From an uncultured delta proteobacterium (lineage in GTDB: Bacteria > Myxococcota > Myxococcia > SLRQ01): a stretch of DNA of 64,000 bases. This document shows, piece after piece, positions 4,323-64,000 of this stretch. Position numbers and translations under genes: made by a program. Positions within the stretch are counted from its first letter, which is position 1. The number at the start of each line of letters is the position of its first letter. The notes under the pieces were generated by a model that had not been told where the DNA came from, did not search any database, and worked only from the letters and a program-made list of their open reading frames with translations. The stretch covers positions 1,188,213-1,252,212 of the forward strand of contig CAVSGM010000001.1 in NCBI GenBank assembly GCA_963727485.1, read 5' to 3'.

Positions 4323-4338
4323 CGCCCGGGCCCGCGCC

Positions 4339-5992: not shown

Positions 5993-6148
5993 ATGAAGAT
6001 GTACGTCGAGTGCGACCGCTGCCGTTACCGGTTCATCATGCGCTACGCCGCCCAGGGCGGCGGGCTGGTCCGGGTCCGCTGCCCCCAGTGCCGGGAGACC
6101 ATGGTCCTCCTGGTCCAAGATGAGGTGGCGGCGCGCGGTCGGTCGTGA
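5993..6148 (+). CDS. 51-aa zinc-ribbon protein (CxxC-x19-CxxC, MJ0042-finger-like)
   Basis: AGGAGG at 5981-5986; MKMYVECDRCRYRFIMRYAAQGGGLVRVRCPQCRETMVLLVQDEVAARGRS*; GC3-rich codons; absent from the ORF track. Confidence 0.8.
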   Translation: MKMYVECDRCRYRFIMRYAAQGGGLVRVRCPQCRETMVLLVQDEVAARGRS

Positions 6149-6236
6149 AATAACCCCCTCGGGCTCCCGCCCCCTACTCCCCGCGCCTGACCCGGCGCCC
6201 CGCCGGTCGAGCCTCGACCCCTCCCGGAGACCGCCC

Positions 6237-6917: not shown

Positions 6918-6933
6918 GGCGCCGCTCGGCACC

Positions 6934-7509: not shown

Positions 7510-8198
7510 CGGCCGGCGTCGGCGTCGGCGTCGGCGGGATCGGCGCCCCCTGGGCGACCACCACCGGCAGCCAGCTCCGGGCCCGCTTCTGGAGCTTCGT
7601 CCCCCGGCGGACCAGGTTCACCAGCTTGTCGGGGACCTGAAGCTTCTCCCGGTGCCCGTCGGGGCCGGCGACGACCATCACGGTCCGCTGGCGCCGCTCC
7701 CCGCTCATGGCGCCGCCGTGGGTCGGGAGCCGCCGGACCTTCACCTCGACCACCGTCCCGGTCCAGGTCGACATGTAGCGGTGGTACCAGGCGGGCAGGG
7801 CGTTGGCGGGCTGGCGCGCCGGATCCTCGATGTGCGCCTCGTCGATGAGCTGGGCCTGCGAGAATCTCCACCGGGTTCCAGGTCATCGAGCGCTTGCGCA
7901 GGTAGTCGCCGGGCTTCAGCTCGCCGGCGAGGTCCCCGGGCACCGGCCGGCGCACCACCTGGCTGTCGGCCATGAGCACCTGGACCTTGCCGCCCTCCGG
8001 CACCGCGACCACCACCGCCTGGTAGGCCTCGAGGTAGCGGTTGACCACCGGGGCCACCAGGATCCCGAAGACGGCCACGACCAGGAGCAGGAGGTAGAAG
8101 TGGCCGAGGTCGCGCTTGAAGCCCCGGGCCTCCCGGGCGATCTCGCGGTCCTCGTCGGCGCCGTCGGCGCGGGGGGTCTCGAGGTCGTCGGGAGCCAT
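7451..8198 (-). CDS. membrane-anchored hypothetical protein with internal duplication; one extra base at about 7863
   Basis: TM helix, then two similar modules ending LKPGDYLRKRSMTWNPV and VRRGTKLQKRARSWLPV; frames join if GAATC at 7862-7866 is read as GATC. Confidence 0.7.
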
Positions 8199-8254
8199 GG
8201 GCGGCCACCCTACACCATTGTGGCGCCCCGGACCTCGTGGGATACCCTGCCCCC

Positions 8255-9742
8255 ATGCGCCTCCGCGTCCTCGTCCTCTGGGCCCTGGTCCTCGCCGGCT
8301 GCGCCACCGCCCCGTCGCCCCCGGTCGGCACCGCGAAGGCCGCCGGTCCCGACCTGCGCATCGACGTCATGGACCAGCTCATGGCGGAGATCGCCGCGGC
8401 CAGGGCCGACGGCTCCCTGCCCCAGCTCCAGGCCGCCCTCGACGCCCGGGCCAAGAGCCTCGATCCCTGGGCGGTGGACCAGGCGGCCTTCGCCCAGGTC
8501 GAGACCGACCCCGAGACCGCCTGGAACCGCTTCCACCAGGTGGTCGTCGCCACCGCCGACCAGGGCGGCGCCGCCTTCTGGGCCCACCTGGGGACGGCGG
8601 CGGTCTACCTGAAGTGGGGCGTCCTCGACCAGGCCAAGGGCGCCATCGACGCGGCCCTGGCGGTGGCGCCAAAGGCGGCGCCGGCCCTCACCTGGGAGGG
8701 GCGCCTGGCCCTCCGGCGCAAGCAGCCGGACGCCGCCCGGAAGGCCTTCTCCGCCGCCGTCGACGCCGCCGGCGGCGCGGCCCACGCCCCGGAGGCGGCG
8801 GTGGCCCTCGCCCGCCTCGAGCTCGACGCCGGCCAGGTGGACGCCGCCGGGAAGCTCGCCGCCGAGGTGGTCGCCGCCCACCCCGACGACGCCGGGGCCC
8901 TGGCGGTGGAGGCCGAGGTCGCCGGCCGGGGCCAGGGCGGGGCCAAGGCCGCCGCGGCCCTCCTCACCAAGGCGGTGCAGGCGTCCCCCAAGAGCGTCGA
9001 CCTCAAGGTCCGCCTGGCCCGGGCCCAGGCCAAGGCCGGGGAGGAGCAGGCGGCCCTGGCCACCTGGCAGCAGGTCGCCGCCGCCCGCCCCGCGGACCTC
9101 GCCACCTGGCGCCAGGTCGCCACCACCGCCAAGACCGTGGGCGACGCCGGGGCCGAGACCGCCGCCCTCCAGAAGGTCACCGCGCTGGCGCCCAAGGACA
9201 CCGCCGCCCTCACGCGCCTCGCCGACCTCCAACGCGCCGCCGGTGACAACGCCGCCGCCGAGGCCGCCCTCACCCGGCTCCTCCAGGCCGACCCCAAGGA
9301 CGGCGCCGCCCGCCTCGAGCGGGGGCGGGTCCGGGAGGCCGAGGGGAACCTCCGGGAGGCCCTCGCCGACGACCGCCAGGCGAAGGCCGCCGGGATCGCG
9401 GGCGCCGCCGACGCCGTGACCGCCCTCGAGAAGCGCATCGGCCTGCCGGACCGGCCCCTCGCCGGCGGGAGCCCCAAGACCCTCTACCGGCGCATCGCCG
9501 GGATCCTCGCCGGCGCCTTCAAGACGCGCCTGGCGACCGTGCCCAGCCTCGGCGGCACCTACTCCCTGAAGATCTGGGTGGAGAAGGGCCGGGTGGTCGA
9601 GGAGGCGGTCGTCGAGAACACCCTCCACGACCCCGTCCTCGAGGCCCTGGCCTGGTGGATGGTCCAGGACGCCCACTTCCCGATCGCCAAGGGGAAGAGC
9701 GAGTACACGCTCCCCTTCACCTTCGCGGCCCCGAACCAGTGA
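8255..9742 (+). CDS. TPR-repeat lipoprotein with C-terminal TonB-C/AgmX-PglI-like domain
   Basis: Lipobox LAGC; many TPR-like repeats; C-terminus PSLGGTYSLKIWVEKGRVVEEAVVENTLHDPVLE...YTLPFTF. Confidence 0.75.
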   Translation: MRLRVLVLWALVLAGCATAPSPPVGTAKAAGPDLRIDVMDQLMAEIAAARADGSLPQLQAALDARAKSLDPWAVDQAAFAQVETDPETAWNRFHQVVVATADQGGAAFWAHLGTAAVYLKWGVLDQAKGAIDAALAVAPKAAPALTWEGRLALRRKQPDAARKAFSAAVDAAGGAAHAPEAAVALARLELDAGQVDAAGKLAAEVVAAHPDDAGALAVEAEVAGRGQGGAKAAAALLTKAVQASPKSVDLKVRLARAQAKAGEEQAALATWQQVAAARPADLATWRQVATTAKTVGDAGAETAALQKVTALAPKDTAALTRLADLQRAAGDNAAAEAALTRLLQADPKDGAARLERGRVREAEGNLREALADDRQAKAAGIAGAADAVTALEKRIGLPDRPLAGGSPKTLYRRIAGILAGAFKTRLATVPSLGGTYSLKIWVEKGRVVEEAVVENTLHDPVLEALAWWMVQDAHFPIAKGKSEYTLPFTFAAPNQ

Positions 9743-10941
9743 CCCCGTCCCGGGTCCAGACCGGCGCCGATCGCCTCGCCGCCGAGGGCTTCGCGCGCCT
9801 CCGGGGTCAGCGGGTGGGCCTGGTGTGCAACCACACCTCGGTGGCCGGCCCGGACCTGGTGCACCTCGCCGACCACCTCGCCGCCGCCGACGGCGTCACC
9901 CTCGCCACCCTCTTCGGCCCCGAGCACGGCATCCGCGGCGACGCCCAGGACATGATCGGCGTCGACGCCGCAATCGACGCGCGCACCGGGGTCCCGGTCG
10001 AGAGCCTCTACGGCCACGACGCCGACTCCCTCTCGCCCACCGCCGAGGGGCTCGCGGGCCTCGACGTCCTCGTCTTCGACCTCCAGGACGTGGGCAGCCG
10101 CTACTACACCTTCCAGGCGACCATGGCCCTGTGCCTGGCGGCCGCGGCGAAGGCCGGGGTCAAGGTGATGGTCCTCGATCGCCCCAACCCTCTCGGGGGC
10201 GTGGAGGTCGAGGGCGGCACCGTCGACCCCGGCTTCGAGAGCTTCGTGGGCCTCCACCCGATCCCCGTCCGCCACGGGATGACCGTCGGCGAGCTCGCGA
10301 GGTGGTACCAGGCCACCCTGAAGCTCGGGGGCGAGCTCGAGGTGGTGGAGATGACCGGCTGGCGCCGGGAGATGTCGTTCGCCGACACCGGCCTCGACTG
10401 GATCGCCCCCTCGCCCAACATGCCCACCGAGGACACCGCCTGGATCTACCCGGGGATGTGCCTGGTCGAGGGCACCGAGCTCTCCGAGGGCCGGGGCACC
10501 ACCCGGCCCTTCGAGCAGTGCGGCGCGCCCTTCGTCGACGGTCACGCCCTCGCCGCGCGCCTCGGCGAGCTCACCCGGGATCACCCGGTGGGCGAGGTGT
10601 GCCTTCGCCCCTGCACCTTCCTCCCGATGTTCCAGAAGCACGCCGGCCGCCCCTGCGGCGGGGTGTTCCTCCACGTCCGGGATCGCGCCGGCCTCAAGCC
10701 CTACCGCCTCGGCCTCCTCTTCCTGGCGGCGGTGCGCGAGCTGTGGCCCGCCGAGTTCGCCTGGCGGGCCAGGCCCTACGAGTTCGTGGGGGAGGTGCCC
10801 GCCATCGACCTGCTCACCGGCTCCGCCGACTTCCGCGCCGCCCTCGAGGGCGGGGGGGATCTGCCGGCGGTGATCGCCACCCAGGACGCCGCCGCCGCGC
10901 GCTTCGCCCGGGACCGGCGGCCCTGGCTCCTGTATCCTTGA
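9739..10941 (+). CDS. namZ: exo-beta-N-acetylmuramidase, DUF1343 family
   Basis: FGPEHG, FDLQDVGSRYYTF, DRPNPLGG, RHGMTVGELA, PSPNMPT, SEGRGTTRPFE; GTGA overlap with the upstream stop. Confidence 0.9.
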   Translation: MTPSRVQTGADRLAAEGFARLRGQRVGLVCNHTSVAGPDLVHLADHLAAADGVTLATLFGPEHGIRGDAQDMIGVDAAIDARTGVPVESLYGHDADSLSPTAEGLAGLDVLVFDLQDVGSRYYTFQATMALCLAAAAKAGVKVMVLDRPNPLGGVEVEGGTVDPGFESFVGLHPIPVRHGMTVGELARWYQATLKLGGELEVVEMTGWRREMSFADTGLDWIAPSPNMPTEDTAWIYPGMCLVEGTELSEGRGTTRPFEQCGAPFVDGHALAARLGELTRDHPVGEVCLRPCTFLPMFQKHAGRPCGGVFLHVRDRAGLKPYRLGLLFLAAVRELWPAEFAWRARPYEFVGEVPAIDLLTGSADFRAALEGGGDLPAVIATQDAAAARFARDRRPWLLYP

Positions 10942-10944
10942 GCC

Positions 10945-13512
10945 GTGGCCGGGCCGGGCGCCACCGACGAGGGACGGACCCGCGCGTCGAGGCCGGCGCC
11001 CCTGATGCTCGAGGGGTTGCCGGCGTTGGCGGCGCTCGCCGCCGACGTGTCCCGCAGCCTCGGTGAGGGGCCGGCGGAGGTGCTCCTCTACCGCCACGGG
11101 CATCGCCTCGGCCGGGCCATGGCCGTGACCCGGCCCGACGCCGCCGAGCCCCCCTCCATCCCCGGCGTGGCCGAGATCGACGCCGGCGGCCCCGAGGACG
11201 CGGCCGGGCGCGCCACCGGGCACTTCTCCCTGACCCCCGACGCCCTGCCGGCCATCGGGGGCCTGGTGGCCGGGTTCGTCGCGGGCTTCGCCACCGAGCG
11301 CGCCGGGGCCCCCCGGGTCTGCGTCGCCTCGCAGTCGGTCGCCGGCGCCTGGGGCTACCGCTGCGGTCCCCCCGAGGGGCTCGGCCCCGAGGGCGAGGCC
11401 CGGGCCGCCTGGCACCATCCCGAGGCGGTCCCCGTCGCCGCCGGGGGCGAGGTGCTCCAGGCCCGCAACGCCACCCTCGCCCGGCAGAACGCCGACCTCC
11501 GGGCCGCCTTCCTCGATCGCACCGAGTTCCTCGCCGACGTCTGCCACGAGCTGCGCACCCCCACCACCCTGATCCTCGGACCCCTCGACGAGCTCCTCGA
11601 GACCCCGGGGGCCATGGCTCCCGAGGCCCTCCGGGAGCGCCTCGGGGAGATGCGGCGGAGCGTGCTCCGGGTGATGCGCCTCGCCGACTCCATCCTCGAC
11701 CTCTCCCGTCTCGACGGGGGCCACCGGGGCCTCGCCCTGCGCCCGGTGTCGCTGGCCGCCTTCCTCGGCGACCTGGCCCAGGTCTTTCGCCGGGGCTTCG
11801 AACGCCGCCAGCTCACCCTGGAGGCCATCCTCCCCGAGGGGCTGCCGCCGGTCCCGGCGGATCCCGACGCCCTGGAGAAGATCGCCGGGAACCTCCTCTC
11901 CAACGCCATGCGCTTCACCCCGCCCGGGGGCCGGGTGACCCTGCGGCTCCGGCGCTACGGGGGTGCCCAGGTCATCGAGGTCGCCGACACCGGCCCGGGG
12001 ATCGACGACGCCGACCTGCCCCACCTCTTCGAGCGCTACCAGCGGGCGTCCGCCGTCGACGACGACGGAGGCCTGGGCATCGGCCTGGCCCTGGTCCGGG
12101 AGCTGGTGGCCCGCCTCGGCGGCGAGGTGCAGGTCCACAGCGTCGTCGGCGAGGGCACCACCTTCCGGGTCTTCCTCGGGGAGTCCCGGGCCGCGGAGAC
12201 CGGCGACCCGGTGGTCCGCGCCGCCCCCGGTGCCCACGCGGCGCTCCTCGCCGAGGCCGAGCCGACCGGTGCCGGCGCCGGCGCCGGCGCCGAGGCCCCG
12301 AGCCCGAGTCCGAGCCCGACCCCAGGCCCCGAGCCCCCGGCGAGCCGCCAGCGCATCCTCGTGGTCGAGGACAACCCCGAGGTCCGCCGCTTCCTGGTCC
12401 GCCTCCTCGGCGACACCTGGGACCTGGTCCTCGCCCGCGACGGCGTCGAGGCCCTGGCGAAGGCCGAGTCCACGCCCCCGGACCTGATCCTCGCCGACGT
12501 GATGATGCCCCGGATGGACGGGCTCACCCTCACCAGCCGCCTCCGGGCCCGCCCCGGGACCCGGGACGTCCCGGTGGTCCTCCTCACCGCCCGGGGGGAG
12601 CTGGAGCACCGTCTCCGGGGCTTCGACGCCGGGGCCGACGACTACGTGATCAAGCCCTTCGCGGGCCGGGAGCTGGTGGCACGCCTCCGGGTCCACCTGG
12701 CCCTGCGCGCCGCCCAGGCCGAGCTCCGGGACTACGCCGGCCGCCTCGAGCGCCTGGTGGACGAGCAGGTCGGGCGCATCCGCGACCAGAACCGGCGCCT
12801 CGCCCGGGCCAACCGCGAGCTCGAGGACTTCCTCACCATCGCCAGCCACGATCTCAAGTCGCCCCTGGTGTCCATCGCCGGGTTCACCGCCATCCTCGAG
12901 GAGAGCCTGGGGGCGAGCTCGGCGCCGCCGGTGCGCCTCGCCCTCGACCGCATCGCCTTCAACATCGACTGGATGCAGCGCCTCATCGGCGGGCTGCTCT
13001 CCCTGGCCTCGGTGCGGGCCGGCGACGCGGCGGTGGCGCAGGTGGCGATCCCGGATCTCCTGGAGCGGGTGCGGCGGCGGATGCAGCCGGCGGTGGAGGC
13101 GGTGGGCGGGCTCCTCGAGGTCCACCCGGTGGCGGGCCGGTGCCAGGCGGACCCGGCGCGCCTCGAGGAGGCGCTGGCGAACCTGGTGGAGAACTCGGTG
13201 AAGTACCGGGATCCCAAGCGGCCCCTGCGGGTCACCCTCCTCGCCCGGCGCGCCGGCGACCGGCTCCACCTCGAGGTCGCCGACAACGGCCTGGGCATCG
13301 ACGCCGCCCACCACGAGCGGGTGTTCCAGCCCCTCTTCCGCCTCGGGGGCGGGGTGGGGCAGGGGTCGGGGCTGGGGCTCTACATCGTTCGCCGGGTGAT
13401 GGAGGAGGCCGGGGGCCGGGCGTGGGTCACCAGCACCCCCGGCGCCGGCGCCACCCTGCACCTGGAGCTGCCCGAGACCGGCGGCGAGGAGGCCCCCGAT
13501 GCCCGGCCGTGA
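10945..13512 (+). CDS. hybrid histidine kinase: degenerate V4R-like sensor, HisKA-HATPase, REC, second HisKA-HATPase
   Basis: CHELRTP and SHDLKSP H-boxes, two N/G-box sets, receiver VVEDN/DVMMP/KPF; start uncertain. Confidence 0.88.
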   Translation: MAGPGATDEGRTRASRPAPLMLEGLPALAALAADVSRSLGEGPAEVLLYRHGHRLGRAMAVTRPDAAEPPSIPGVAEIDAGGPEDAAGRATGHFSLTPDALPAIGGLVAGFVAGFATERAGAPRVCVASQSVAGAWGYRCGPPEGLGPEGEARAAWHHPEAVPVAAGGEVLQARNATLARQNADLRAAFLDRTEFLADVCHELRTPTTLILGPLDELLETPGAMAPEALRERLGEMRRSVLRVMRLADSILDLSRLDGGHRGLALRPVSLAAFLGDLAQVFRRGFERRQLTLEAILPEGLPPVPADPDALEKIAGNLLSNAMRFTPPGGRVTLRLRRYGGAQVIEVADTGPGIDDADLPHLFERYQRASAVDDDGGLGIGLALVRELVARLGGEVQVHSVVGEGTTFRVFLGESRAAETGDPVVRAAPGAHAALLAEAEPTGAGAGAGAEAPSPSPSPTPGPEPPASRQRILVVEDNPEVRRFLVRLLGDTWDLVLARDGVEALAKAESTPPDLILADVMMPRMDGLTLTSRLRARPGTRDVPVVLLTARGELEHRLRGFDAGADDYVIKPFAGRELVARLRVHLALRAAQAELRDYAGRLERLVDEQVGRIRDQNRRLARANRELEDFLTIASHDLKSPLVSIAGFTAILEESLGASSAPPVRLALDRIAFNIDWMQRLIGGLLSLASVRAGDAAVAQVAIPDLLERVRRRMQPAVEAVGGLLEVHPVAGRCQADPARLEEALANLVENSVKYRDPKRPLRVTLLARRAGDRLHLEVADNGLGIDAAHHERVFQPLFRLGGGVGQGSGLGLYIVRRVMEEAGGRAWVTSTPGAGATLHLELPETGGEEAPDARP

Positions 13513-45684: not shown

Positions 45685-47292
45685 TCAGGCGGACTCGATC
45701 TGGATGGGGCCGAGGTCCTCTTCGTCGACGGTCTCCGCGGGCGGGACCTCGTCGAGGAGCTCGAGGGCGACCTGCAGGGCCTTGCGGGTCTTCTCCCGGA
45801 GCTTCTCGTCGCCCTTGAGCTTCTGATAGGCCTTGAGGACCCGCTCCTCGTTGCGGCCGTTCTCGCGCTCCAGCTCATCGATGCGCTCCTGGAGCTGGGC
45901 GACCTCCTCCTGGGCGCTCTGGCTCTGCTCGAGCTCGGCCTGGAGGCTGTCGATCTGGCCCTGGAGCTCCTGGACCTTGCCGTCCGCGGTGGAGAGCCGC
46001 CCGCCGAGCTCGGCGACCTGGCCCTCGAGGCGCTGCTGCTCCCCGGCGGCGGCCTCGAGCTCGGCCTGCATCTCGCCCACCCGGCGGGCCTCGCCGTGGG
46101 CAGCCTCGAGCTCGGCCTGGACCTTGTCGAGGCGCTCGGCCTGGGAGGCGATCTTCTCGCCCAGGGTCTTGACCTGGGCCTCGCCGGTGAGCGCCGACTC
46201 CTCGAGCTCGGCGGCCTTGAGCTCCAGCTCGTTCTCCCGCTCCTGCCACTCGAGGGCAGCCTTCTCCTTCTCGTGGAGGGTCTCCTTGAGCGAGAGGATC
46301 TCCTTGTCGCGCTGGGTCAGCTCGCCCTTGAGCTTGAGGACCTCCTTGGCGCCGCCCCCGCCGCCGCCACCGGCGCGGAAGGCCTCGAGCTCGTTGCTCT
46401 TGGCGCGCAGCTCGTCCTCGATCTCCGAGACCCGCTTCTCCAGGTCGCCGCGCTCGCGGCGGAGCTTCTCGTTCTCCTCCTCGAGGCTCTGGATCCGGGC
46501 GGCGGCACCGGCACCTCCGGCGCTCCGGGCCGGGGCCGCGACCTCCACCGGTGCGGCCACGTCCTCGTCGCCGAGGAGCTCGAGGCCCTCGACGAGGTCG
46601 TCGTCCTCCTCGACCTCCACCGCCTCGAGGGCGGGCTCGTCCTCGCCGGCGGCCTCGACCTCCAGGGGCTCGTCGTCGCCGAGGGAGCCGAGGGAGTCGA
46701 TGGCGAGGTCGGCGGTGTCGACCTCCTCGACCTGGCTGTCGCTGACCTCGAGGGCGTCGAGGGCCACGTCCTCGAGCTCGTCGTCGCCGAGGCCGTTGAC
46801 CGCGGCGGCGTCGATGATTTGGGTGCCCTCGCTGCTGCCCCCGTCCTCGTCGAGCTCCAGGGCGTCGAAGGCGTCCTCGAGGAGATCGATGTCCTCGTCG
46901 AGCTCGGCGGTGTCGTCCTCACCGAGGTCGACCAGGGCGGCGACCTTCTCCACCACGTCCGCGGGCTCGCAGGGCTTGATGACGTAGTCCTCGGCGCGGG
47001 TCTTGAGCTTCTTGTGCTGCTCGAAGGTCTTGGGCGTGGCCTCGCTCGAGGTGATGATGAGGGGGATCTGCTTGAGCTCGTCGTTCTTCTTGAGCTTGTT
47101 GCAGACCGCGTAGCCGCTCATCTTGGGCAGCTCGACGCAGAGCACGATGGCGTCCACGCCGTCCTCGGCGATCCGGATCCCCTCCTTGCCGTCCGCGGTC
47201 TGCTTCACCTCGGCGCCCCGCTCGGCGAAGGCGCCCTCGAGGGCGCTGGCAAAGGCTTCGTCCGCCTCGATGAGGAGGATGGTCTTGGACAT
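45685..47292 (-). CDS. frzS: FrzS-like atypical receiver domain with acidic linker and long coiled coil
   Basis: MSKTILLIEAD..., VLCVELP (no phospho-Asp), CNKLKKNDELKQIP, FEQHKKLKTRAEDYVIKP; downstream of the ECF/anti-sigma pair. Confidence 0.78.
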   Translation of the reverse strand: MSKTILLIEADEAFASALEGAFAERGAEVKQTADGKEGIRIAEDGVDAIVLCVELPKMSGYAVCNKLKKNDELKQIPLIITSSEATPKTFEQHKKLKTRAEDYVIKPCEPADVVEKVAALVDLGEDDTAELDEDIDLLEDAFDALELDEDGGSSEGTQIIDAAAVNGLGDDELEDVALDALEVSDSQVEEVDTADLAIDSLGSLGDDEPLEVEAAGEDEPALEAVEVEEDDDLVEGLELLGDEDVAAPVEVAAPARSAGGAGAAARIQSLEEENEKLRRERGDLEKRVSEIEDELRAKSNELEAFRAGGGGGGGAKEVLKLKGELTQRDKEILSLKETLHEKEKAALEWQERENELELKAAELEESALTGEAQVKTLGEKIASQAERLDKVQAELEAAHGEARRVGEMQAELEAAAGEQQRLEGQVAELGGRLSTADGKVQELQGQIDSLQAELEQSQSAQEEVAQLQERIDELERENGRNEERVLKAYQKLKGDEKLREKTRKALQVALELLDEVPPAETVDEEDLGPIQIESA

Positions 47293-47440
47293 CGAAAGCA
47301 GTCCTTCTCTCCCGGGGCCCCGCCCGGGTGGTGCTGGGAGAAATCGCGCGGAAGTCCGGGGACTTTGCCGCAAAGACGATGTTATCTCCCAGCCTGGGAG
47401 AGGGTCAATGAAACGGCCGGGGCACGGGCCCCCGGCGCGC

Positions 47441-52265: not shown

Positions 52266-52910
52266 ATGACCGAGAGACGACGCGTCGAGGTGGTGGTGCC
52301 GCGCAGGACCTTCAACGAGGTCCTGGCGCGGTCGACGGCGGAGGGCGGCAGCCTCTTCGTTCCCGGGGCCGGCCTGCGCGCCGGCGAGCGGGTCGAGGTG
52401 AGCCTCCAGTTCGAGGGCTTCCCCCAGGAGTTCACCGTCCCCGGGGTGGTCACCGCGGTCCGCAGCCGGGGCCGGGGGACGACCCTCCCGAGCGGCGCCA
52501 CCCTCCAGGTCGACCCGGTCCACGCCGGCCGCCTGGAGAAGATCCTCGCCTTCGCCCGGGGCGAGAAGGTCCCCTGGAAGCGCCGGGAGACTCCGCGCTT
52601 CCTCGTCGATCTCGCCGTGGAGCTGCGCTGCGCCGCCGGGACGGTCGCCTGCCGCACCCGGGACCTGTCCCTGGGCGGCGTGGGCCTCTCAGCCGCCGGC
52701 GCCCTCCCGGCCATCGGCGAGGAGGTCGAGGTCCGCATCCCCCTCGATGGCAGCCTCCTGCCCCTCCGCCTCACCGGCAAGGTGATGTGGCTCGACTTCT
52801 TCTCCAAGAGCCGGGGGCTGGGCCTGCGCTTCGTGGGTGGGGGCTTCGCCTGGAAGCGGCGCCTGGAGAAGCTGGTGGCCGAGGCGTCGGACAATCCCGA
52901 CGACCTCTGA
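52266..52910 (+). CDS. PilZ domain protein (myxobacterial two-barrel type)
   Basis: KRRETPR (RxxxR) and DLSLGG (DxSxxG). Confidence 0.85.
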   Translation: MTERRRVEVVVPRRTFNEVLARSTAEGGSLFVPGAGLRAGERVEVSLQFEGFPQEFTVPGVVTAVRSRGRGTTLPSGATLQVDPVHAGRLEKILAFARGEKVPWKRRETPRFLVDLAVELRCAAGTVACRTRDLSLGGVGLSAAGALPAIGEEVEVRIPLDGSLLPLRLTGKVMWLDFFSKSRGLGLRFVGGGFAWKRRLEKLVAEASDNPDDL

Positions 52911-52915
52911 GGCCC

Positions 52916-53557
52916 ATGGTTCAGCGCGGCCAGTTCCTGGAGCGGATGGCGGTCATCGCCGCCGGCGGCGAGACCCTCGAGGGCCTCTATCACCGGGGCG
53001 AGGCGATGCCGCCGGTGGTCCTCGTCCCCCCGCACCCCCGGGACGGCGGCTCCATGGACAGCGCCATGGTCGCCGAGGTCGCCTGGGCGGTGACCCGGGC
53101 GGGCCACGCCACCCTGCGCTTCAACTTCCGCGGGGTGGGGGCGTCCTCGGGGACCCCCGGCGGGCCCGAGGACGACCTCGCCGACCTCGCCGCCGCCCTG
53201 GTCCACCACGCCGAGACCACCGGGGCCGCTCGCCTCGGCCTCTGCGCCTTCGCCGGGTCCGCCGGGGTGGCCCTCCGGGCGGTCGCGACCCGGGCGGACG
53301 TGGGCCAGGTGGTGCTGGTGGCCCCGGCCGGCGACGATCTCGCCGCGGTGGTGGCCGCCGTCGCCGCGGCCCCGCCCAGGCGCTTCCCGGTCCGGGTCCT
53401 GGCCCTGCCCGGCGCCGACCGGTCGCCCTTCGCGCCCCTCGGCGAAGGCGCCCGGGTCGAGGTCCTGGACCACGTGGATCTCGCCCGGGGCCGGGGCCTC
53501 CCCGCCCTGGGGCACCGGGTCGCCGAGGCCTTCAGCCCCCGATCGCGAGGCGGGTGA
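52916..53557 (+). CDS. alpha/beta hydrolase-fold protein, probably lacking the catalytic Ser
   Basis: PPHPRDGGSMD, TLRFNFRGVGASSG; nucleophile elbow reads AFAGSA instead of GxSxG. Confidence 0.8.
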   Translation: MVQRGQFLERMAVIAAGGETLEGLYHRGEAMPPVVLVPPHPRDGGSMDSAMVAEVAWAVTRAGHATLRFNFRGVGASSGTPGGPEDDLADLAAALVHHAETTGAARLGLCAFAGSAGVALRAVATRADVGQVVLVAPAGDDLAAVVAAVAAAPPRRFPVRVLALPGADRSPFAPLGEGARVEVLDHVDLARGRGLPALGHRVAEAFSPRSRGG

Positions 53558-56500
53558 TGAGCCGGCCCGGGTCCTCCCGGGCCTCCTCGACCCACCCCTG
53601 GAGGTGGTGCCGGAGGAGGGCCTGGCCGAAGGCCCGGTCGAGGGGCAGGAGCTCGTAGACCCCGGTGGCACCCTTGAGCTCGAAGCCCCGGAACTGCACC
53701 TCGCCGGCCCGGCGGAAGACCAGGGCACCGGCCACCGCGTCGGCGATCCGGGCGGTCGCCGGGACGCTGATGACCAGGGACAGGACCTCGTCCCGGAAGA
53801 GGAAGCCGGCGGTCACCTCCGGCGCCAGGCTGGCGACCGGGACGGTGCGGGTGAAGTGGTGGTGGCTGGCGAGGGTCTCGCCGAGGAAGGCGTCGAGGGC
53901 CGCCTCGGAGAGGGCGACCCCGAGGTTGTGGATGTCGCTGAAGGCCTGGAGCACCGTGCCCCCGGCGCCCGACCCGCCGGCGAGGCGCCTCGAGGTCCTC
54001 GAAGGTGAGCTCGCCCAGGCGCCGGCTCACCGCCTCGGCGGCCTCGAGGTCCGTGTCCCGCAGCGCGCGCTCGAGGCCCGCCGAGAGGTCGTGGGGGAGC
54101 ACCAGGCCGTACGCCGACTCCACGTAGACGGCGAACGGCCAGGCGAGCTGTGGCGCCCCCCGGGCGGTTCGCGCCGCCTCGAGCTCGGCGTCGAGGCGGG
54201 CCTTGATCTGGGCGCTCCGGGCGGTGCCCCGGGCCGCCTCGTTGATCTTCTCGCTGATGGCCACCCGGAGGCTCCCGAAGACGTCGTCCTCGAGGGTGAT
54301 GACCTCGGCGCTGGCGCCGTAGGAGATGTAGGTCCCGGTCTCCAGGCCGAAGCCCGTCGCCGCCCGCCGGTGCTCCTCCACGCTGCGGCGGCGGGTGGCC
54401 CGGGCCTCCCGGAGTCGGGCCAGCTCCTCCTCCAGGGCCCGGACCCGGGCGGTCTCCTGGCGGCCGAGGAGCTCGGCGAGGCGGGCGTCGCGCTCGGCGG
54501 GATCGAGGCGCCCGAGGGCCTCGCGGGTCCGGCGCGCCTGCTCCCGGACCTCGAGCTCCCAGGCGTCGAGGCGCTCGAGGTACGCGCCGAGGGCCTCGGG
54601 GTCGTCCCCGGCCTCGAGGCGGGCCCGGGTCTCGCTCCGCCGCCGGACCAGCTCCTCGAAGCGCCCCTCGAAGACCCTCTCCAGGCGCTGCAGCTTCGCC
54701 GCCGGGTCCAGGGCCGAGAGCTCGTCCACCGCCGCCCGCGCCGCGTCCAGCTCGCCCCGGAGGGCCTCGAGGCGCGCGGCGGTCTCGGCCTCCGACGCCG
54801 CCAGGGCCACCTCCAGCTCCCCGAGGGTGGACTCGTCGGTGACGCTGGGGGCGGCGCGGCGCAGGCGGTCCTCGTAGGCGCGGCCCACCGCCTGGAGGTC
54901 CCGGGCCAGGGCCAGGAGGTCGGTGACCGAGCCGGCGAAGGCGGCGGCGTCGCCGAGGAGGTTGTGGAGCTCCACCGGCCGGTCGCTCGCGCCGCCGAAG
55001 GCCAGCGACGCGTCCCGGCGCCGGGCCGCGGCGAGGATGGGGCCGTAGAACTGCTCGCGCATGAAGTCCGCCATCACCACCTCCTTGGCCCGGTAGGTGC
55101 GGCGGGTGAAGCCCTTGAGGTCCACGAAGAGCTGCCCCTGGGTGGGGCGGCGCAGGGCCTTGAGGAGCGGCCGGCCGTCGGGGGCGAGGCGGTAGAGGCG
55201 CCCGGCCTCCCAGGCGGTGACCAGGGGCTCGGGATCGGCCCCCGGGATCCGCTCCGAGCGCAGGTGGCCGCGGGTCTCCTCGAGGCGCGCGGCGGCGAAG
55301 GCGTCGAAGGCGTAGGCGAGGTGGGCCACCGTCCCCTGGTGGGCGAGGGCCTCGGGCGGGGGGAGACCGGGGCAGGGGCGCGCGGCCGGGTCGCCGGCGC
55401 CGAAGGCGTCGAGGAGGCCCACCAGGTCCTCGACCACGCGATTGCCCGAGGGGTCGGAGCGGGGGCGGCCCATGCGGGTGAGGCGCCGGCGCAGGGCCTC
55501 CCGGGCCTTGGCCCCGCGGAGCAGGGCGTCGAGGTCGGCGTCCTTGCGGAGCACCGAGGCGAGCAGGCGCATCCAGTCGGTGCGCCCGTCGTCGAAGTGG
55601 GCGAGGAAGGCGAAGATCCGCTGGCGCGCCTCCCCGCGCAGGCCGGCGCGGGCGGCGGCCGCGAAGCCCTCGGGGCTCCGGTCCACCGCCTGGTGCATCC
55701 GCGCCTCGAGGCTCGCCGGGTTGCTGTCCCGCTGGAGCACCTCGCCGTAGACGGAGTCGAGGACCGGGAGCGCCTCCGGGGAGAGGGACCAGGGGTTGAG
55801 GTCGTTCTGGAGGGCCCGGCTCTTGATGGACACGTAGAGGATCGGCGAGAGGGCGCTGTCCACCCGCAGCCAGGTGCCGGTGAGGTCGAAGGGCAGGGCC
55901 CGGCGCCGGTAGGGGGCCAGCGCCGCGTGGCACGCCGCCTCCACCGCGGCGAAGCACGCGAGCCCCACCGCCTTCTCCAGCCGCTCCCAGGTCATCCCCC
56001 GGATGCTCACCGCCTTGGCGAGCTCCTTCTTCTGCTCCACCAGGTCCGCCAACGCCAGGACCATCAGGTAGGTGTAGGGGACCTCGCCGCGGGTGCCGAG
56101 CTCCGCCTCCAGGGCCCGGGTCACCAGGCCCTGCACCGCCGCCAGGAGCTTGGAGCCCGGTCCGCCCCGGGCGGTCCAGGTGTCGAGGAGGCCGCAGTCG
56201 AGGTAGGGGTCGAGGTGGGCCGCCCGCAGGGACACCCGAAGCTCGAGGCTCCCCGGGGGGTTGAACCTCGGGCTGTAGGTCTCGTCCCGCAGGGGGCGGC
56301 GGCTGTCGAGGGTGGACAGCTCCAGGCTCTCGGTGGGCGCGAATCGCCGGCGCAGCAGCTCCACCAGCTCCGCCATGGCCTGACCGGCGAGGCGGTCGGT
56401 GGCGTCGTCGAAGGCGTAGGGGATCTTGGCCTCGGCCAGGGACTCCCCGAGGCGGAAGGGCAGGCCGGCGAGGGGATCGAGCCAGAAGCGCAGGAGATCG

Positions 56501-56595
56501 TCGCCCCGGGCGCTCACGTGGGCGAAGAGGGCCCGGTGGTGGGCCAGCCGGTCCTCGATGGGGTTGCCGGCGACGCCACGGACGACCTCGGTCAC
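53532..56595 (-). CDS. approximately 1,020-aa protein with split class III nucleotide-cyclase-like domain and coiled-coil insertions; one extra base at about 53990
   Basis: LFVDLKGFT, HNLLGDA, ETGTYISYG, INEAARG, GVALSE, FRGFELKG..VYEL in canonical order; GTG start overlaps the upstream stop. Confidence 0.7.
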
Positions 56596-58148
56596 GGGCC
56601 GTCTCCGTGGGCGGCGCAGACCGCGACGATCCACAGGCGCTCGCCGCCGAAGCGCCGGGAGGCGTGGGCCAGGACCGCGAGGCCGAGGCGATCGCAGCCC
56701 GGGTCGAGGACCGCCGGGGCCCGCACCACCGCCTCGGGGCGGCCGGCGACCACCGCGGCGACGGAGACCCCGGTGACGCGGGGGTCGGCGGCGCGGAGCC
56801 GCCGGCGGAGGGCGGTGGTGGCCCGCGGGTCGTCGCCCCGGTCGCCGGTGGCGAGGTGGCGGGCGAGGGCGGTCGCGGCGTCGTCGAGGGCCGGATCGCG
56901 GACGGCGGCCTGGAGGTGGCGCGCCGCCCGGGCGTCGTCCACCGCGGTCTCGGCCCGGAAGGCGAGGCGGTCGGCGCGCAGCGCCCGGGCCCCGGCGGTG
57001 TCCACCACCGGGTGGCCGTGGAGGGGCCGGGCGAGGACCACCGCCAGCCAGGTCCGGCCGCCCTGGCGGTGGAGCGCCAGGCCGAAGCGGGTCGCCCGGG
57101 GGTCGAGGAGGGCGGCGCGGTGGGCGGGGCTGTCGAGGAGGCCCTGCCAGGCGGCCAGGGGCGTGGGGCCGGCGGCGAGGTCCTCCCCGGCCCAGGCGAA
57201 GGCGTAGCCGGTGGCGGCGAGGGCGTGGGGGAGGTCGGCGCCGGGGCGGGGGCGGTGCACCGGGCGGCCCACCCCGGCGCAGAGGCGGGCCCGGTGGCGG
57301 GCCACCCGGTCCAGGGCCGAGTCGGCGACCGGGGCCTCGAGGTGGTGCCGGCGGCGCAGGCGCCCGAGGGCGTCGGCGACGGCGGCGGCGGCGTCTCCCC
57401 GGGGGGGCGGGGCGACCGGCGCCGGGGCCAGGGGCGGCGGGACGCCGGCGGCGACGGGGGCGAGGAGGGCCGCCTCGGGGCCCATCCCGGCGTCGGCGAG
57501 GAGCTCCACCGTCCATCGGCCCGCCGTGGCCACCGGGAAGACGCAGCGGAAGCGCCGGCCCCGGAGCGACACCGGGACGGTGATCACCGTTCCGTCGGGG
57601 CGGGTGGCGAAGGCCCGGGGCCGGGTGACCCCGGCGGCGAGGATCCCGGCGACGACCAGGGGGCGGCCGGTGGCGAGGACCCGGGGGAAGGGCGCCGGGG
57701 TGGCGAGGCGCCGGGCCACCAGGAGGACCCCGACCGAGCCCCCGCGATCCGGGGTGACCGCGGCGCCGAGGACGGCGGAGCCCGGGGCGTCGCCGGCGGC
57801 GGCGCGGAGGCGGGCGAGGACGGCCGCGGGGCCGTGGCCCCGGGCCACCGTCGGCGAGACCTGGGCGTCGGCGGCGCCGGCCTGGTGGAGGAGGAAGGCC
57901 ACCTGCCGGGCGCGGATCGCCGGGTCGACGTGGGCGTCGGGGGCGCCGGAGAAGGCGAGGGCGAGGCGCCGGGCGGCGTCGCAGAGGGTCCCGTCGAGGG
58001 CCCGGGGCCAGGGGCCCGCCGGGCAGAGGCCCGCAGGGGGCCGGGGCCCGTAGACCGCCCGGGCGCCGGCGTGGGCGGGGGTGGCGGCGAGGAGGCAGCC
58101 ACCGGCGGCGAGGAGGCGGAGGACGCGGGCGGCGCGGCGGTCAGCCAT
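56592..58148 (-). CDS. exported CAP/SCP-domain protein
   Basis: Signal peptide (PAHA); AGEDLAAG, LLDSPAHRAALLDP..TRFGL; degenerate extra CAP-like repeats. Confidence 0.8.
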   Translation of the reverse strand: MADRRAARVLRLLAAGGCLLAATPAHAGARAVYGPRPPAGLCPAGPWPRALDGTLCDAARRLALAFSGAPDAHVDPAIRARQVAFLLHQAGAADAQVSPTVARGHGPAAVLARLRAAAGDAPGSAVLGAAVTPDRGGSVGVLLVARRLATPAPFPRVLATGRPLVVAGILAAGVTRPRAFATRPDGTVITVPVSLRGRRFRCVFPVATAGRWTVELLADAGMGPEAALLAPVAAGVPPPLAPAPVAPPPRGDAAAAVADALGRLRRRHHLEAPVADSALDRVARHRARLCAGVGRPVHRPRPGADLPHALAATGYAFAWAGEDLAAGPTPLAAWQGLLDSPAHRAALLDPRATRFGLALHRQGGRTWLAVVLARPLHGHPVVDTAGARALRADRLAFRAETAVDDARAARHLQAAVRDPALDDAATALARHLATGDRGDDPRATTALRRRLRAADPRVTGVSVAAVVAGRPEAVVRAPAVLDPGCDRLGLAVLAHASRRFGGERLWIVAVCAAHGDGP

Positions 58149-60366: not shown

Positions 60367-61011
60367 ATGGCTTTTCCCACGACCCGCCTGCGAGGCGCCG
60401 CCCTGGTGCTGGCCGTCGTCCTCGCCGCCGCGCCCCTCTCGGCCCGGGCCTCGTCCCACGCCACGGCGCTGGTCGACCTCTTGTCCCTGATCCACCATGA
60501 CCCGACCCCGGCGGAGCTCTCCGCCTTCGGGCCAGACCTCGAGGCCAGGCTCATCGCCATCGCCGAGGATCCCGCGGTGCGGAGCCTCGCCCGGGTGCGG
60601 GCGGTGGCCTGCGCGGCCCGGTACGGGGACGCCGCCGCCTTCCAGCTCGCCGCCGACCTCGCCGCCTCGACCGCGGCGCCCCGGCGCCTCCGCCTCGCGG
60701 GGGTGTGGAGCCTCCAGCACCACTTCGTCGCCCGGCCGGCCACCGTCGGCGTCCTCGCCAGGGTCCTGGTGGACCGGGACCCGGGGCTCCGGGCCGCGGC
60801 GGTGCGGGCCCTCTCGGCGGTGGGCACCCCCAAGGCCCAGGCCCTCCTCGACCAGCACCGGATCGCCGAGCGCAACTCGGTGGTGCGCCTGGCCCTCCGG
60901 CGGGCCCTGGCCCGGCGGCTGCCCGCCGGCGCCACCCTGCCCCGGGACGGACGGGTGCGGCGGCCGGTGCTCCAGATGAGCCCGCAGGCCCGGCCTGGAG
61001 GTGTCCGATGA
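60367..61011 (+). CDS. exported HEAT-repeat protein
   Basis: Signal peptide; LVDRDPGLRAAAVRALSAVG. Confidence 0.78.
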   Translation: MAFPTTRLRGAALVLAVVLAAAPLSARASSHATALVDLLSLIHHDPTPAELSAFGPDLEARLIAIAEDPAVRSLARVRAVACAARYGDAAAFQLAADLAASTAAPRRLRLAGVWSLQHHFVARPATVGVLARVLVDRDPGLRAAAVRALSAVGTPKAQALLDQHRIAERNSVVRLALRRALARRLPAGATLPRDGRVRRPVLQMSPQARPGGVR

Positions 61012-63011
61012 AGGCGCTGCGCCTGACCCTCGCCCTCGGGGCCCTGGCCCTGGTGAGCGCCGGCTGCTTCGGCACCAACGACGCCAAGAGCCAGCCCGGC
61101 AGCATCGGCGACGCCTGCACCGTGGGCACCGACTGCCAGAGCGGCTTCGCCTGCGACAAGGCGCTGCCCGGTGGCTACTGCGTCGCCCAGTGTGCCGGCG
61201 GCTGCCCCCAGGACAGCCAGTGTGCCACCGTCGGCGGCCAGCAGCTCTGCCTGCTCTCCTGCCAGGACGACACCGGCTGCCGCCAGGGCTACGCCTGCAA
61301 GGGCGGGGTGTGCATGCCGCCCTGCAGCTCCGACAGCGACTGCACCACCGGCGAGTCGTGCCAGGGCGGGGTGTGCACCGCCAACGGCATCGGCGCCACC
61401 TGCACCGCGCCCTCGGACTGCAGCTCGGGGCTCTGCGCCAAGAGCCTCCCCGGCGGCTACTGCACCCAGAGCTGCGACAACGGCAAGACCTGCCCCACCG
61501 GCACCCAGTGCGTGACCTACGGCGGCAAGAGCTACTGCTTCGATGGCTGCGCCAAGAACGCCGACTGCCGCACCGGCTACGTGTGCAGCAACGGGGTGTG
61601 CGACGCGGCGTGCAGCGGCGACGCCGACTGCGGCGGTGGCGAGGTCTGCCAGAACCAGGCCTGCGTCGGCGCCGGCGTCGGCGAGACCTGCGCCAGCGGC
61701 AGCGACTGTCCCTCGGGGCTCACCTGCGACACCTCGGTGAGCGGGGGCTACTGCACCCAGACCTGCACCGCCGCCGCCGACTGCCCGGTGGGCGCCATCT
61801 GCGGGGTCATGAAGGGCACCCGCACCTGCCTGGCCGACTGCCGGACCAGCGCCGACTGCGCCAGCGGCCAGTCGTGCATCCTCGGGGTGTGCAACGTCCC
61901 CTGCGGGAGCGACAGCGACTGCGGCTCGGGGATGTACTGCGACACCACCAGCGGCCAGTGCCACCAGAAGGCGGTGGGCGGCGGGGGCGTGACCACCGTC
62001 GATCTGGGCACCGTGCCCCTGGGCACGCCCACGTCCTTCCAGGTGGACAGCAAGACCTTTGGCGTGGAGATCGTCGCCGTCGGCGACCAGGGCGCCAACT
62101 ACGAGATCTCCTCGGTCACCAACCCCAGCGGCACCGAGCTGGTGAACCAGTCGAACCCCTACGGTGGGCCGCTGCGGGTGGTGCCCGACACCGAGGTCGC
62201 CACCGCCCAGATCCCCAACAGCGACAGCTCGGCGGTGGCGCTCACCCCCGGCGTCTGGCACTTCCAGGTGATCACCGATAGCGGCTCGGCGCCCCACGTG
62301 ACCATCCTCATGCGCACCTCGCCCACTGGTGCCGAGGTGGGCGGCACCGTGCCCCTGAACGTCTTCCTGGCCCCGAACGCCTACCCGGGGACCACCGCCG
62401 CCAACGCCGCCAGCGACCAGTCCCTCCAGGCGATCCTCGGCCGCTGGGACGTGTTCTACAGCAACCAGTACGGCAACCCCGCCGACATCCCGCTGGGCAC
62501 GATCCACTACTACGACATCTCCAGCCAGTACTCGGACATCACCACCACCCCCCAGTACGAGTCGATGTTCGCCCAGTACGGGCGCGGCGACGGGCTGAAC
62601 CTCTTCTTCGTCCGGAGCCTCTCCATCGGCGGGCAGTCGGCGGTGGCGGGCGTCGCCGGGGGGATCCCCGGGCCGGCGCGGATCTCCGGGACCCTCCACT
62701 CGGGGGTGGTCATCGAGGTGCAGCCGAGCCAGAGCGGCTCGGGGATCGACACCCGGATCACCGGCGACGACATGTCCCACGAGTGCGGGCACTTCCAGGG
62801 GCTCTTCCACACCACCGAGCTCGACGCGGCCCACACCCAGGACCTCATCAGCGACACCCCCGAGTGCACCAACATGCCCACCCAGAACAGCATGGGCAGC
62901 TGCTCCCAGGACGCCTACAAGAACCTCATGTTCCCCATGCTCACCGGGGAGCAGAGCATCCTGACCGCGGGGCAGGCCAAGGTCGTCCAGGCCAACCCGG
63001 GGATCCACTGA
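61008..63011 (+). CDS. Cys-rich repeat lipoprotein with C-terminal metzincin metallopeptidase
   Basis: Lipobox SAGC; three Cys-rich modules; HECGHFQGLFH (HExxHxxGxxH) and NLMFP Met-turn. Confidence 0.88.
   Translation: MKALRLTLALGALALVSAGCFGTNDAKSQPGSIGDACTVGTDCQSGFACDKALPGGYCVAQCAGGCPQDSQCATVGGQQLCLLSCQDDTGCRQGYACKGGVCMPPCSSDSDCTTGESCQGGVCTANGIGATCTAPSDCSSGLCAKSLPGGYCTQSCDNGKTCPTGTQCVTYGGKSYCFDGCAKNADCRTGYVCSNGVCDAACSGDADCGGGEVCQNQACVGAGVGETCASGSDCPSGLTCDTSVSGGYCTQTCTAAADCPVGAICGVMKGTRTCLADCRTSADCASGQSCILGVCNVPCGSDSDCGSGMYCDTTSGQCHQKAVGGGGVTTVDLGTVPLGTPTSFQVDSKTFGVEIVAVGDQGANYEISSVTNPSGTELVNQSNPYGGPLRVVPDTEVATAQIPNSDSSAVALTPGVWHFQVITDSGSAPHVTILMRTSPTGAEVGGTVPLNVFLAPNAYPGTTAANAASDQSLQAILGRWDVFYSNQYGNPADIPLGTIHYYDISSQYSDITTTPQYESMFAQYGRGDGLNLFFVRSLSIGGQSAVAGVAGGIPGPARISGTLHSGVVIEVQPSQSGSGIDTRITGDDMSHECGHFQGLFHTTELDAAHTQDLISDTPECTNMPTQNSMGSCSQDAYKNLMFPMLTGEQSILTAGQAKVVQANPGIH
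61105..61965 (+). repeat. three tandem Cys-rich modules of about 95 aa
   Basis: G..C....DC.SG..C....(P/S)GGYC...C at about 61105, 61390 and 61678. Confidence 0.85.
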
Positions 63012-63557: not shown

Positions 63558-64000
63558 TGTGGGATCCCAAGAGGTCGTTCAGTGACTTGGTGAGTTGTTC
63601 ACCCGGACCCCCCGAGGGAAGTTGGTGAGTGGCAAAACAAACCACTCCCACGAAGGGAAACCGGGTGAACGTCCACAGTCATGGACGAACGACTCCCATC
63701 AGTCGAGGTCTGATCATCCAGCGGGTCCAGCTCGAGGGCTGGACCGTGGGCGACGCTGCCGATGCAGCGGGCGTCAGCGAGCGGACCGCCTACAAGTGGC
63801 TGCGGCGGCATCGGGAAGAAGGCCACTCGGGCCTGCTGGACCGTACCTCGCGGCCGCGTCGGATGCCGCAGCAGCTGGGGGAAGAGTGGCGGCAGCTGGT
63901 GCTGGAGCTCCGGCGCGAGCACCGGATGACCGGCAAGGCGATCGCCCAACGACTACGGCTGGGCAGGTCCACAGTGTCACGGCTCCTGAGGCGCCACCGG
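63558..64000 (+). mobile_element. IS481-family insertion sequence, left end, truncated by window edge
   Basis: Begins TGTGGGATCCCAAGAGGTCGTTCA with a second GAGTTGTTCA repeat; composition shift; transposase follows. Confidence 0.82.
63665..64000 (+). CDS. IS481-family transposase, N-terminal part
   Basis: MNVHSHGRTTPISR...AAGVSERTAYKWLRRHREEG..GLLDRTSRP...IAQRLRLGRSTVSRLLRR. Confidence 0.92.
   Translation, partial: MNVHSHGRTTPISRGLIIQRVQLEGWTVGDAADAAGVSERTAYKWLRRHREEGHSGLLDRTSRPRRMPQQLGEEWRQLVLELRREHRMTGKAIAQRLRLGRSTVSRLLRRHR

Follow-up and report, generated by a model that had tools for sequence, protein, structure and literature searches.

The window, a stretch of 64,000 nucleotides, carries on its minus strand a gene for a predicted class III nucleotide cyclase, soluble and with its catalytic fold split by insertions (Table 1). 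An earlier note on this DNA had proposed that all class III motifs stand in order once a frameshift at about 53990 is repaired, and we found the motifs where it had placed them. LFVDLKGFT (55131-55105), HNLLGDA (54966-54946), ETGTYISYG (54342-54316) and INEAARG (54246-54226) are read on the minus strand in the frame that opens at GTG 56595, and GVALSE (53921-53904), FRGFELKG (53693-53670) and VYEL (53660-53649) in a second minus-strand frame that ends at TGA 53532. The switch between the two, at ~53990, is tracked by high GC3 and corresponds to one extra base at ~53991, while the frame is intact in P0025, encoded on an 8.3-kb contig in ENA as a single open frame of 1,020 aa. No residue of P0025 differs from the window protein, either across residues 2-868 or across the final 152. 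Because the same protein occurs uninterrupted on a separate contig, the extra base is most likely an assembly error. A true pseudogene in the source organism seems extremely improbable: the frameshift is present in the assembly, and no contig spanning the junction was found among public contigs and sequencing runs, but elsewhere an otherwise identical protein is intact, and neither half carries a mutation when compared with it. No RNA data set was listed among the sequencing runs, and a promoter and terminator scan gave nothing above chance.

The CAP-domain gene directly upstream has a homologue at the same place in 12 of 70 related loci. Housekeeping genes flank the locus and keep synteny within families, and on the basis of this neighbourhood and synteny a defence-island origin was rejected. 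Pfam found no CNBD, TIR or Pycsar-type effector among the gene's neighbours in the window or 51 selected neighbour proteins of related loci. In this setting the gene resembles a signalling gene passed on by vertical descent rather than a component of a defence cassette.

Table 1. Features of the cyclase locus (positions in the window; residues of the bridged protein)
Feature	Position	Strand	Details
Upstream CAP (PF00188) domain gene	56592..58148	-	Signal-peptide-like N-terminus; stop overlaps cyclase start (GTGA)
Whole cyclase gene	53532..56595	-	1,020 aa once the one-base break is bridged; GTG start
N-terminal all-helical domain, residues 1-482	55150..56595	-	Model; pLDDT 92.8, pTM 0.92
Strand beta1, LFVDLKGFT	55105..55131	-	First metal Asp D492 (55122-55120); conserved K494
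Insertion 1, ~13-aa loop between the two Asp	54976..55020	-	Asp spacing 57 vs 44-45; low model confidence
HNLLGDA	54946..54966	-	Base-selecting position, Lys/Glu in canonical cyclases, is N545 (54963-54961); D549 (54951-54949) is the second metal Asp
Insertion 2, helical coiled-coil hairpin	54355..54855	-	Residues ~581-747; model
Strand beta4, ETGTYISYG	54316..54342	-	Gly754 at the canonical triphosphate-binding Arg position, by the PMC2576301 register
V778, second base-selecting site	54262..54264	-	N-7 register; adenylyl cyclases have Asp/Thr here, guanylyl cyclases Cys/Gly
Helix alpha4, INEAARGTAR	54217..54246	-	N785, R789; family-specific invariant R793
Insertion 3, ~86-90-aa alpha/beta insert	53955..54213	-	Model
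One extra base shifting the frame	53990..53992 (~53991)	-	GC3 switch and comparison with P0025; probable assembly error
HNLGVALSE	53904..53930	-	Family-specific invariant N890, G892; then strand beta5
Insertion 4, ~45-50-aa beta-hairpin/helix before the KG loop	53730..53864	-	Model and sequence spacing
F-R-G	53685..53693	-	R969, corresponding to the VKGK Lys that binds phosphate

Predicted fold, insertions and database searches

The full-length AlphaFold model used here is that of P0001, a relative 91% identical to the window protein, and not of the window's own sequence. In this model the scattered motifs assemble into a class III cyclase fold, as the earlier note had anticipated in proposing a soluble cyclase split by insertions and a structural check of it. 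VIA-align of the model against 48,161 chains returned class III cyclases at ranks 1-25, aligned over residues 481-987, the best match being CyaB (3r5g; Z 16.0, rmsd 2.8, 179/196 residues aligned). Foldseek ranks 1-7 were all CyaC, with E-values of 0.026 or weaker. The class III matches (Z 10-16) compare with Z 9.6 for GTP cyclohydrolase III, 9.2 for GGDEF and 9.1 for Cmr2. Profile-profile alignment placed NLLGD on KFIGD (prob 82%, E 1e-5); against the 15 canonical class III domains that the source genome carries besides, it gave prob 82% for the N-half and 89% for a compact member, and the C-terminal motifs alone had no significant profile-profile score (prob <1%). The model alignment over 481-987, together with the placement of NLLGD on KFIGD, argues that the cyclase resemblance is beyond chance.

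Compared with PF00211 cyclases (CyaB of P. aeruginosa, 3r5g; Cya2, 2w01; CyaC, 1wc1), the predicted fold is alike (Z 15-16, rmsd <3 A, ~180 residues), with the two metal Asp, N-x3-R and the basic KG loop in the same order. The protein differs in having four insertions, a domain spread over ~500 residues, a 480-aa N-terminal domain and no PF00211 match. Only two insertions had been recognised at first; both are present, but ~13 aa between the Asps and ~50 aa separating the GVALSE Ser from F-R-G have to be added, and the insert described as helical and ~95 aa long does exist (~86-90 aa) but is mixed alpha/beta in the model. The inserts total ~300 residues and vary across the family, the R789-N890 span ranging over 42-109 aa and the D549-G754 span from 40 to 207 aa. 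Since the latter drops to 40 aa, with several members at 40-56 aa, some members have no coiled coil, which is therefore not part of the conserved core. Compact members occur, an example being P0119 with 766 aa. The trypanosomal receptor adenylyl cyclases GRESAG 4.1/4.3 (1fx2, 1fx4; class III match, Z 13.9) also carry a short inserted subdomain inside the catalytic domain, but those are membrane receptors, whereas this protein has four inserts and no clear TM helix.

The unrecognised region of ~480 aa ahead of the cyclase still has no fold match in structure searches: Foldseek found nothing in the PDB or the viral library, no usable Atlas match appeared among named clusters, and the best VIA-align matches were small helical bundles (Z 6.9). 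This absence is no proof of a new fold. The domain is likely regulatory. Its helices also contain the most hydrophobic 19-residue stretch (hydropathy 1.73), and among the relatives 7/90 reach 1.9 and none 2.0, in line with the expectation that no TM helix would be evident.

At 50% identity and with E up to 0.001 the family comprises 314 representatives, of which many are fragments, and it is widespread in Myxococcota, with Anaeromyxobacter among its cultured carriers, and also present in other 'deltaproteobacteria'. Weak matches in two f2 genomes (E ~1e-4) were rejected, as a deeper profile did not reproduce them. The suspicion that profile searches could miss the protein proved correct: neither the protein nor its relatives received a cyclase match or any meaningful family assignment from Pfam, NCBIfam or PADLOC, PADLOC had no match for six family members, and the family profile, run against PDB sequences, returned only two chance matches to coiled coils. 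The PF00211 profile matched 0/10 and 0/17 members. Fragmentation had been offered as the cause, but members without the coiled coil escape PF00211 as well (0/17), so fragmentation alone is not the whole explanation. The PF00211 miss marks the reach of the Pfam model, and the class III claim rests on predicted structure.

Catalytic residues across the family

Residue counts were taken from a pattern-free set of 90 relatives of at least 700 aa, and the full D/D/N/R count from 89 rows, P0147, whose C-terminal half fails to align, having been dropped beforehand. NLLGDA is invariant in the GTDB set of 70 loci, but this was set aside as evidence because the set had been retrieved with two patterns, one being that motif. 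The register of class III positions follows PMC2576301.

Results showed that D492 (89/90), D549 (85/90), N785 (80/90) and R789 (83/90) are widely kept; all four are intact in 78/89 full-length relatives spread over a deep tree, so that the conservation proposed as a check does hold. K494 is found in 77/90. The last motif had been taken as ELKG, but its K occurs in just 5/57 rows with a residue there, and the conserved basic residue is R969 in F-[RK]-G, with K or R in 84/90 by a register that relies on the order of the motifs and on weak profile alignment to vKGk. The protein thus has the two metal Asp, the N-x3-R on helix alpha4 and the basic residue of the beta7-beta8 loop expected of class III.

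Other positions are specific to the family. R793 and N890, each in 88/90 relatives, are invariant in the 78 intact members, as are G790 and G754, the last at the site where class III cyclases have the beta4 triphosphate Arg (by sequence register); E786 is kept in 75/78. These five surround the catalytic elements outside the canonical set of PMC2576301, and large inserts flank the catalytic helix, which would suit a class III scaffold with another chemistry, where metal-NTP is bound and the nucleotide transferred or hydrolysed rather than cyclised. Nucleotidyl transfer to a partner, a linear or cyclic dinucleotide, and NTP pyrophosphatase activity are the options named. We regard such chemistry as unlikely, considering that class III structures match better than GGDEF, Cmr2 and GTP cyclohydrolase III, and that the N-x3-R pair and KG loop, specific to cyclisation, are retained.

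At least one catalytic residue is missing in 11/89 relatives, belonging to several separate clades, and since these keep the whole protein otherwise, the scaffold can also serve a function other than catalysis. A pseudo-cyclase, or a near-inactive scaffold for NTP binding, that uses the coiled coil and N-terminal domain to contact other proteins would account for this, as well as for the absence of the beta4 Arg and of both canonical base selectors; but the four catalytic residues persist in the other 78 across very long branches and several members have no coiled coil, making this reading improbable.

Base pocket and likely product

The base-selecting Asn of the earlier note is real and conserved: N545 is found in 74/90 relatives, and the 78 intact members have N in 71, S in 5, G in 1 and C in 1, with no Glu among them. 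Residue 778 is V in 76 and I in 10 of 90. At D-4, canonical adenylyl cyclases have Lys and guanylyl cyclases Glu; at N-7 the former have Asp/Thr/Ser and the latter Cys/Gly. The family has instead Asn/Val (or Ile at 778), in addition to Gly rather than the beta4 Arg.

Rv1900c (LipJ) of Mycobacterium tuberculosis has a minor guanylyl side activity and likewise an Asn at the base-selecting site, which is dispensable there. In its structure, titled adenylyl cyclase (PDB 1ybt; Z 15.2, rmsd 2.4, 165/167 aligned), this Asn precedes the second metal Asp by four residues (REVNTAGD), as N545 does here. The enzyme differs from the family in its compact 167-residue domain and alpha/beta-hydrolase partner domain, and, in a passage of PMC4886424, His is given in place of the catalytic Asn. 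Given this precedent, the Asn is not as remarkable as the earlier note supposed.

It had also been taken as a hint at a Pycsar-like pyrimidine cyclase, and that hint found no support, as an adenylyl cyclase has the same residue, the PycC base-selecting positions are unmatched and no effector gene is found among the neighbours scanned. Pycsar PycC and Pucsar PucC (7r65, 8jsz, 8jsf) are likewise class III scaffolds with altered base-selecting residues, but the family protein is 3-4 times longer, lies among housekeeping genes with no adjacent TM/TIR effector found, and has other selectors. The PycC selectors are R142/Q144 in EaPycC and K104/F109 in AnPycC (PMC11224242). The corresponding D-4, D-2 and D+3 positions here are N545, L547 and A552, and in the 78 intact members 547 is L in 59, P in 9 and V in 7, and 552 is S in 33 and A in 17. 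A cUMP or cCMP cyclase like PycC, possibly in defence signalling, could draw on the two non-canonical base-selecting sites, on the PycC structures among the matches (7r65, Z 12.9; 8jsz, 12.5; 8jsf, 12.4) and on the Lys at D+2, which resembles AnPycC K64. It is nonetheless highly unlikely: those structures come below purine cyclases (ranks 1-16, Z 16.0-13.0), Leu and Ser/Ala occupy the sites of Q144, K104 and F109, and neither PADLOC on six family members nor the Pfam scan of the gene's own neighbours and 51 selected ones from related loci revealed Pycsar components.

From the modelled fold and the retained residues, the protein is probably an active soluble cyclase making a purine cyclic nucleotide, with ATP a somewhat more likely substrate than GTP. 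Within this reading, a cAMP-led product is our tentative choice, and a cGMP-led one is only somewhat less likely. Speaking against a purine cyclase are the Gly in place of the beta4 Arg in 78/78 intact members, the absence of a canonical residue at either base selector, the 11/89 degenerate relatives and the 15 canonical class III domains already in the genome. A bolder and rather unlikely view makes the protein the first recognised member of an old, unannotated 'deltaproteobacterial' class III family with a rebuilt site (Asn/Val, Gly for the beta4 Arg, R793/N890), which would make a non-standard product, e.g., a non-defence cyclic pyrimidine, or transfer nucleotidyl groups under the control of a helical domain of new fold.

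Proposed mechanism and significance

The best explanation, in our judgement and on the basis of the model, would be a two-metal, soluble class III cyclase fused to a 480-residue helical domain and probably converting a purine NTP to a 3',5'-cyclic nucleotide. By analogy with other class III enzymes, a head-to-tail pair of copies would be expected: D492 and D549 of one copy could bind the metals and N785 and R789 of the other hold the ribose and the transition state. The triphosphate would be bound by R969, possibly with K494 or R793 replacing the absent beta4 Arg, and the base may sit in a relaxed pocket made by N545 and V778, as in Rv1900c. Dimer closure on a cytoplasmic input would presumably be controlled by the N-terminal domain together with the variable inserts.

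Counts of bacterial signalling enzymes lean on profile matches, and a predicted cyclase family with 314 representatives escapes those of Pfam, NCBIfam and PADLOC. The class III domain tolerates ~300 inserted residues at four sites with its catalytic residues kept, and the natural compact members make this tolerance directly testable. Moreover, the family offers a large helical domain for which no structural match was found, together with a predicted base pocket in which Asn and Val are conserved.

Reading frame of the predicted cyclase gene

The cyclase gene, of about 75% GC, lies on the minus strand. Results showed that the seven cyclase motifs lie where the earlier note had placed them, four in the frame opening with GTG at 56595 and three in the frame ending with TGA at 53532, and the frameshift it proposed near 53990 is borne out by the codon GC3 signal, which changes frame there. 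A relative with 91% identity (P0001) is encoded by one open frame of 1,020 aa, and it aligns with the window's first frame as far as TFEDL and with the second frame from RRLAGG on. Moreover, P0025, a member of the same cluster found on an 8.3-kb ENA contig, is intact, and both its residues 2-868 and its final 152 residues are identical to those of the window protein; because of this identity on both sides, the break is one extra base, most likely arising from an assembly error. No contig bridging the junction was found among public contigs. The gene is single-copy in its genome, where 15 ordinary PF00211 domains are also found.

Predicted fold and insertions

Pfam, NCBIfam and PADLOC scans matched no family for the protein or the relatives scanned, and the family profile found nothing among PDB sequences. 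We modelled P0001 with AlphaFold2, using a 72-row alignment with P0001 as first row (mean pLDDT 90.5, pTM 0.73). Foldseek with this model returned weak E-values, its first seven rows being the soluble cyclase CyaC. Using VIA-align against 48,161 chains, ranks 1 to 25 were class III cyclases (24 of 25 by title, rank 24 being an untitled hypothetical protein); the best, CyaB, reached Z 16.0 (rmsd 2.8, 179/196 residues) across model residues 481-987, against values near 9 for the palms of GGDEF and Cmr2. As had been anticipated, the scattered motifs come together in a class III cyclase fold in the predicted model. Independently of the model, profile-profile comparison of 78 family members with the genome's own cyclases set LFVDLKGFT on LFsDIxGFT and NLLGD on KFIGD (probability 82%, E 1e-5). 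When a compact member led the profile the probability was 89%, and the C-terminal motifs taken by themselves stayed below 1%. The protein is well supported as a new variant of class III cyclases, with a putative cyclase activity.

The two insertions described earlier, a coiled coil and an insert following the catalytic helix, are both present, but spacings give four (table), and the one following the catalytic helix is not purely helical in the model. Residues 1-482 modelled alone form a helical domain (pTM 0.92) with no structural match in PDB or viral libraries, in keeping with the claim of an unrecognised N-terminal region of about 480 aa, and no clear TM helix is seen in the window protein.

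Features of the cyclase protein, its surroundings and related loci
Feature	Position	Strand	Description
Insertion 1	between the two Asp residues		~13 aa; from spacing
Insertion 2			~160 aa coiled coil; from spacing and model
Insertion 3	after catalytic helix		~90 aa, mixed alpha/beta; from spacing and model
Insertion 4	before KG loop		~50 aa; from spacing and model
CAP-domain gene	56592-58148	-	signal-peptide-like start; stop overlaps cyclase start
Convergent ORF	52840-53557	+	overlaps cyclase 3' end by ~26 nt
PilZ protein	52266-52910	+	two PilZ stretches; two genes downstream of cyclase
Lipoprotein-like protein	61008-63011	+	cysteine-rich repeat; weak C-terminal Peptidase_M43 match (E 0.0014)
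Receiver protein	45685-47373	-	response-regulator receiver, acidic linker, long coiled coil
Transposase-like ORF	63629-64000	+	runs off contig end
Related locus L074 (G281)	723-12662		family gene beside FHIPEP/FHA/TPR/RDD cluster
Related locus L076 (G268)	238-2718		compact 827-aa copy

Conservation and distribution of the family

Scanning GTDB genomes with a motif pattern recovered 70 loci, and all but one (69) carry Myxococcota or Deltaproteobacteria in their titles. A HMMER search free of the pattern reached 314 representatives with E no higher than 0.001, of which the best 150 were used. For the conservation alignment, 156 proteins were considered, 143 newly contributed by HMMER and 13 selected from earlier searches, and the 90 with at least 700 aa were aligned. 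The guanylate cyclase catalytic set given in PMC2576301 (D482, D527, N599, R603, R571, K640) has D492, D549, N785, R789 and R969 as equivalents in the window protein, with Gly754 at the position of R571. The metal Asp residues are kept in 89/90 (D492) and 85/90 (D549), the alpha4 pair in 80/90 (N785) and 83/90 (R789), Lys or Arg at 969 in 84/90, and K494 in 77/90. Once a broken row is left out, all four D/D/N/R residues are present in 78 of the 89 sequences, the conservation that the earlier note had required of homologues, and R793, N890, G754 and G790 are invariant across these 78. The other 11 have lost catalytic residues, are scattered over several clades of the FastTree tree and may be pseudo-cyclase paralogues; the full-length members concerned are P0015, P0023, P0098, P0100, P0120, P0124, P0135, P0148, P0170, P0171 and P0173.

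The distance from D549 to G754 varies between 40 and 207 residues, so that some members are without the coiled coil. None of 17 mostly compact members matches PF00211, so that fragmentation, which had been proposed to hide the domain from profiles, contributes but is not the sole cause, divergence hiding the family as well. One genome (G268, same family) has two intact-looking copies, one long and one compact without the coiled-coil insert.

Matches were found in 88 of 301 genomes of the phylum (two candidates scored per genome; a few matches weak), in all 4 other genomes of the window's own family and in 13 of 121 of one large family (f2). Genome sizes suggest that f2 may include the myxobacteria kept in laboratories, which would account for the lack of studies on this cyclase family. 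Source names assign members to Thermodesulfobacteriota and 'Deltaproteobacteria GWC2_42_11'. Among Atlas clusters, unnamed ones from Myxococcota and from Acidobacteriota resemble the family, as does a PF00211 one at 0.88; these are leads only.

Neighbourhood and predicted substrate

Neighbours vary between families and are syntenic inside each, including glutamine synthetase, trp genes, a purQ-like gene, alanine dehydrogenase, HAD and DsbA. In 12 of the 70 loci, from two distant groups, the gene immediately upstream is a homologue of the CAP-domain gene; 59 of the 70 have more than 1,500 nt upstream. By eye, from its motif, the convergent ORF resembles an alpha/beta hydrolase, but Pfam gives no match for it up to an E of 1, and its nucleophile-elbow region is unusual. 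The PilZ protein is possibly a c-di-GMP receptor. The receiver protein has an architecture known from myxobacterial motility regulators, and we take the transposase-like ORF to be IS481-type. In G281, a 13-Mb genome, a canonical Cache-HAMP-PF00211 cyclase gene lies 870 nt from the family gene, on the side away from the FHIPEP cluster. No CNBD, TIR or Pycsar-type effector was found among 51 neighbour proteins scanned; immune cyclases are tied to effector neighbours in the Pucsar preprint (10.64898/2026.08.12.744502).

A literature search on myxobacterial insertion-split cyclases gave no mention of the family, and covered few subscription papers, so this result is weak; PMC4886424 concerns a different hidden family, DUF2652. 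The guanylate cyclase selectors E523 (D-4, relative to the second metal Asp) and C592 (N-7, relative to the catalytic Asn), again from PMC2576301, correspond to N545 and V778. The non-canonical base-selecting Asn noticed earlier is indeed conserved (N545 in 74/90, Ser in 9/90), as is V778 (76/90, Ile in 10/90). Rv1900c/LipJ of M. tuberculosis (1ybt, titled adenylyl cyclase) reads REVNTAGD with the same Asn, hence this residue is not unique to the family. PycC selectors, as given in PMC11224242, are R142/Q144 at D-4/D-2 and K104/F109 at D-2/D+3, whereas the family has Asn at D-4, Leu at D-2 and Ser/Ala at D+3. Because selector swaps in Ma1120 shift substrate with no clean switch (PMC4215837), the product is not readable from two selector residues. 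We commit to a purine as the predicted product, with ATP slightly favoured because of the Rv1900c precedent.
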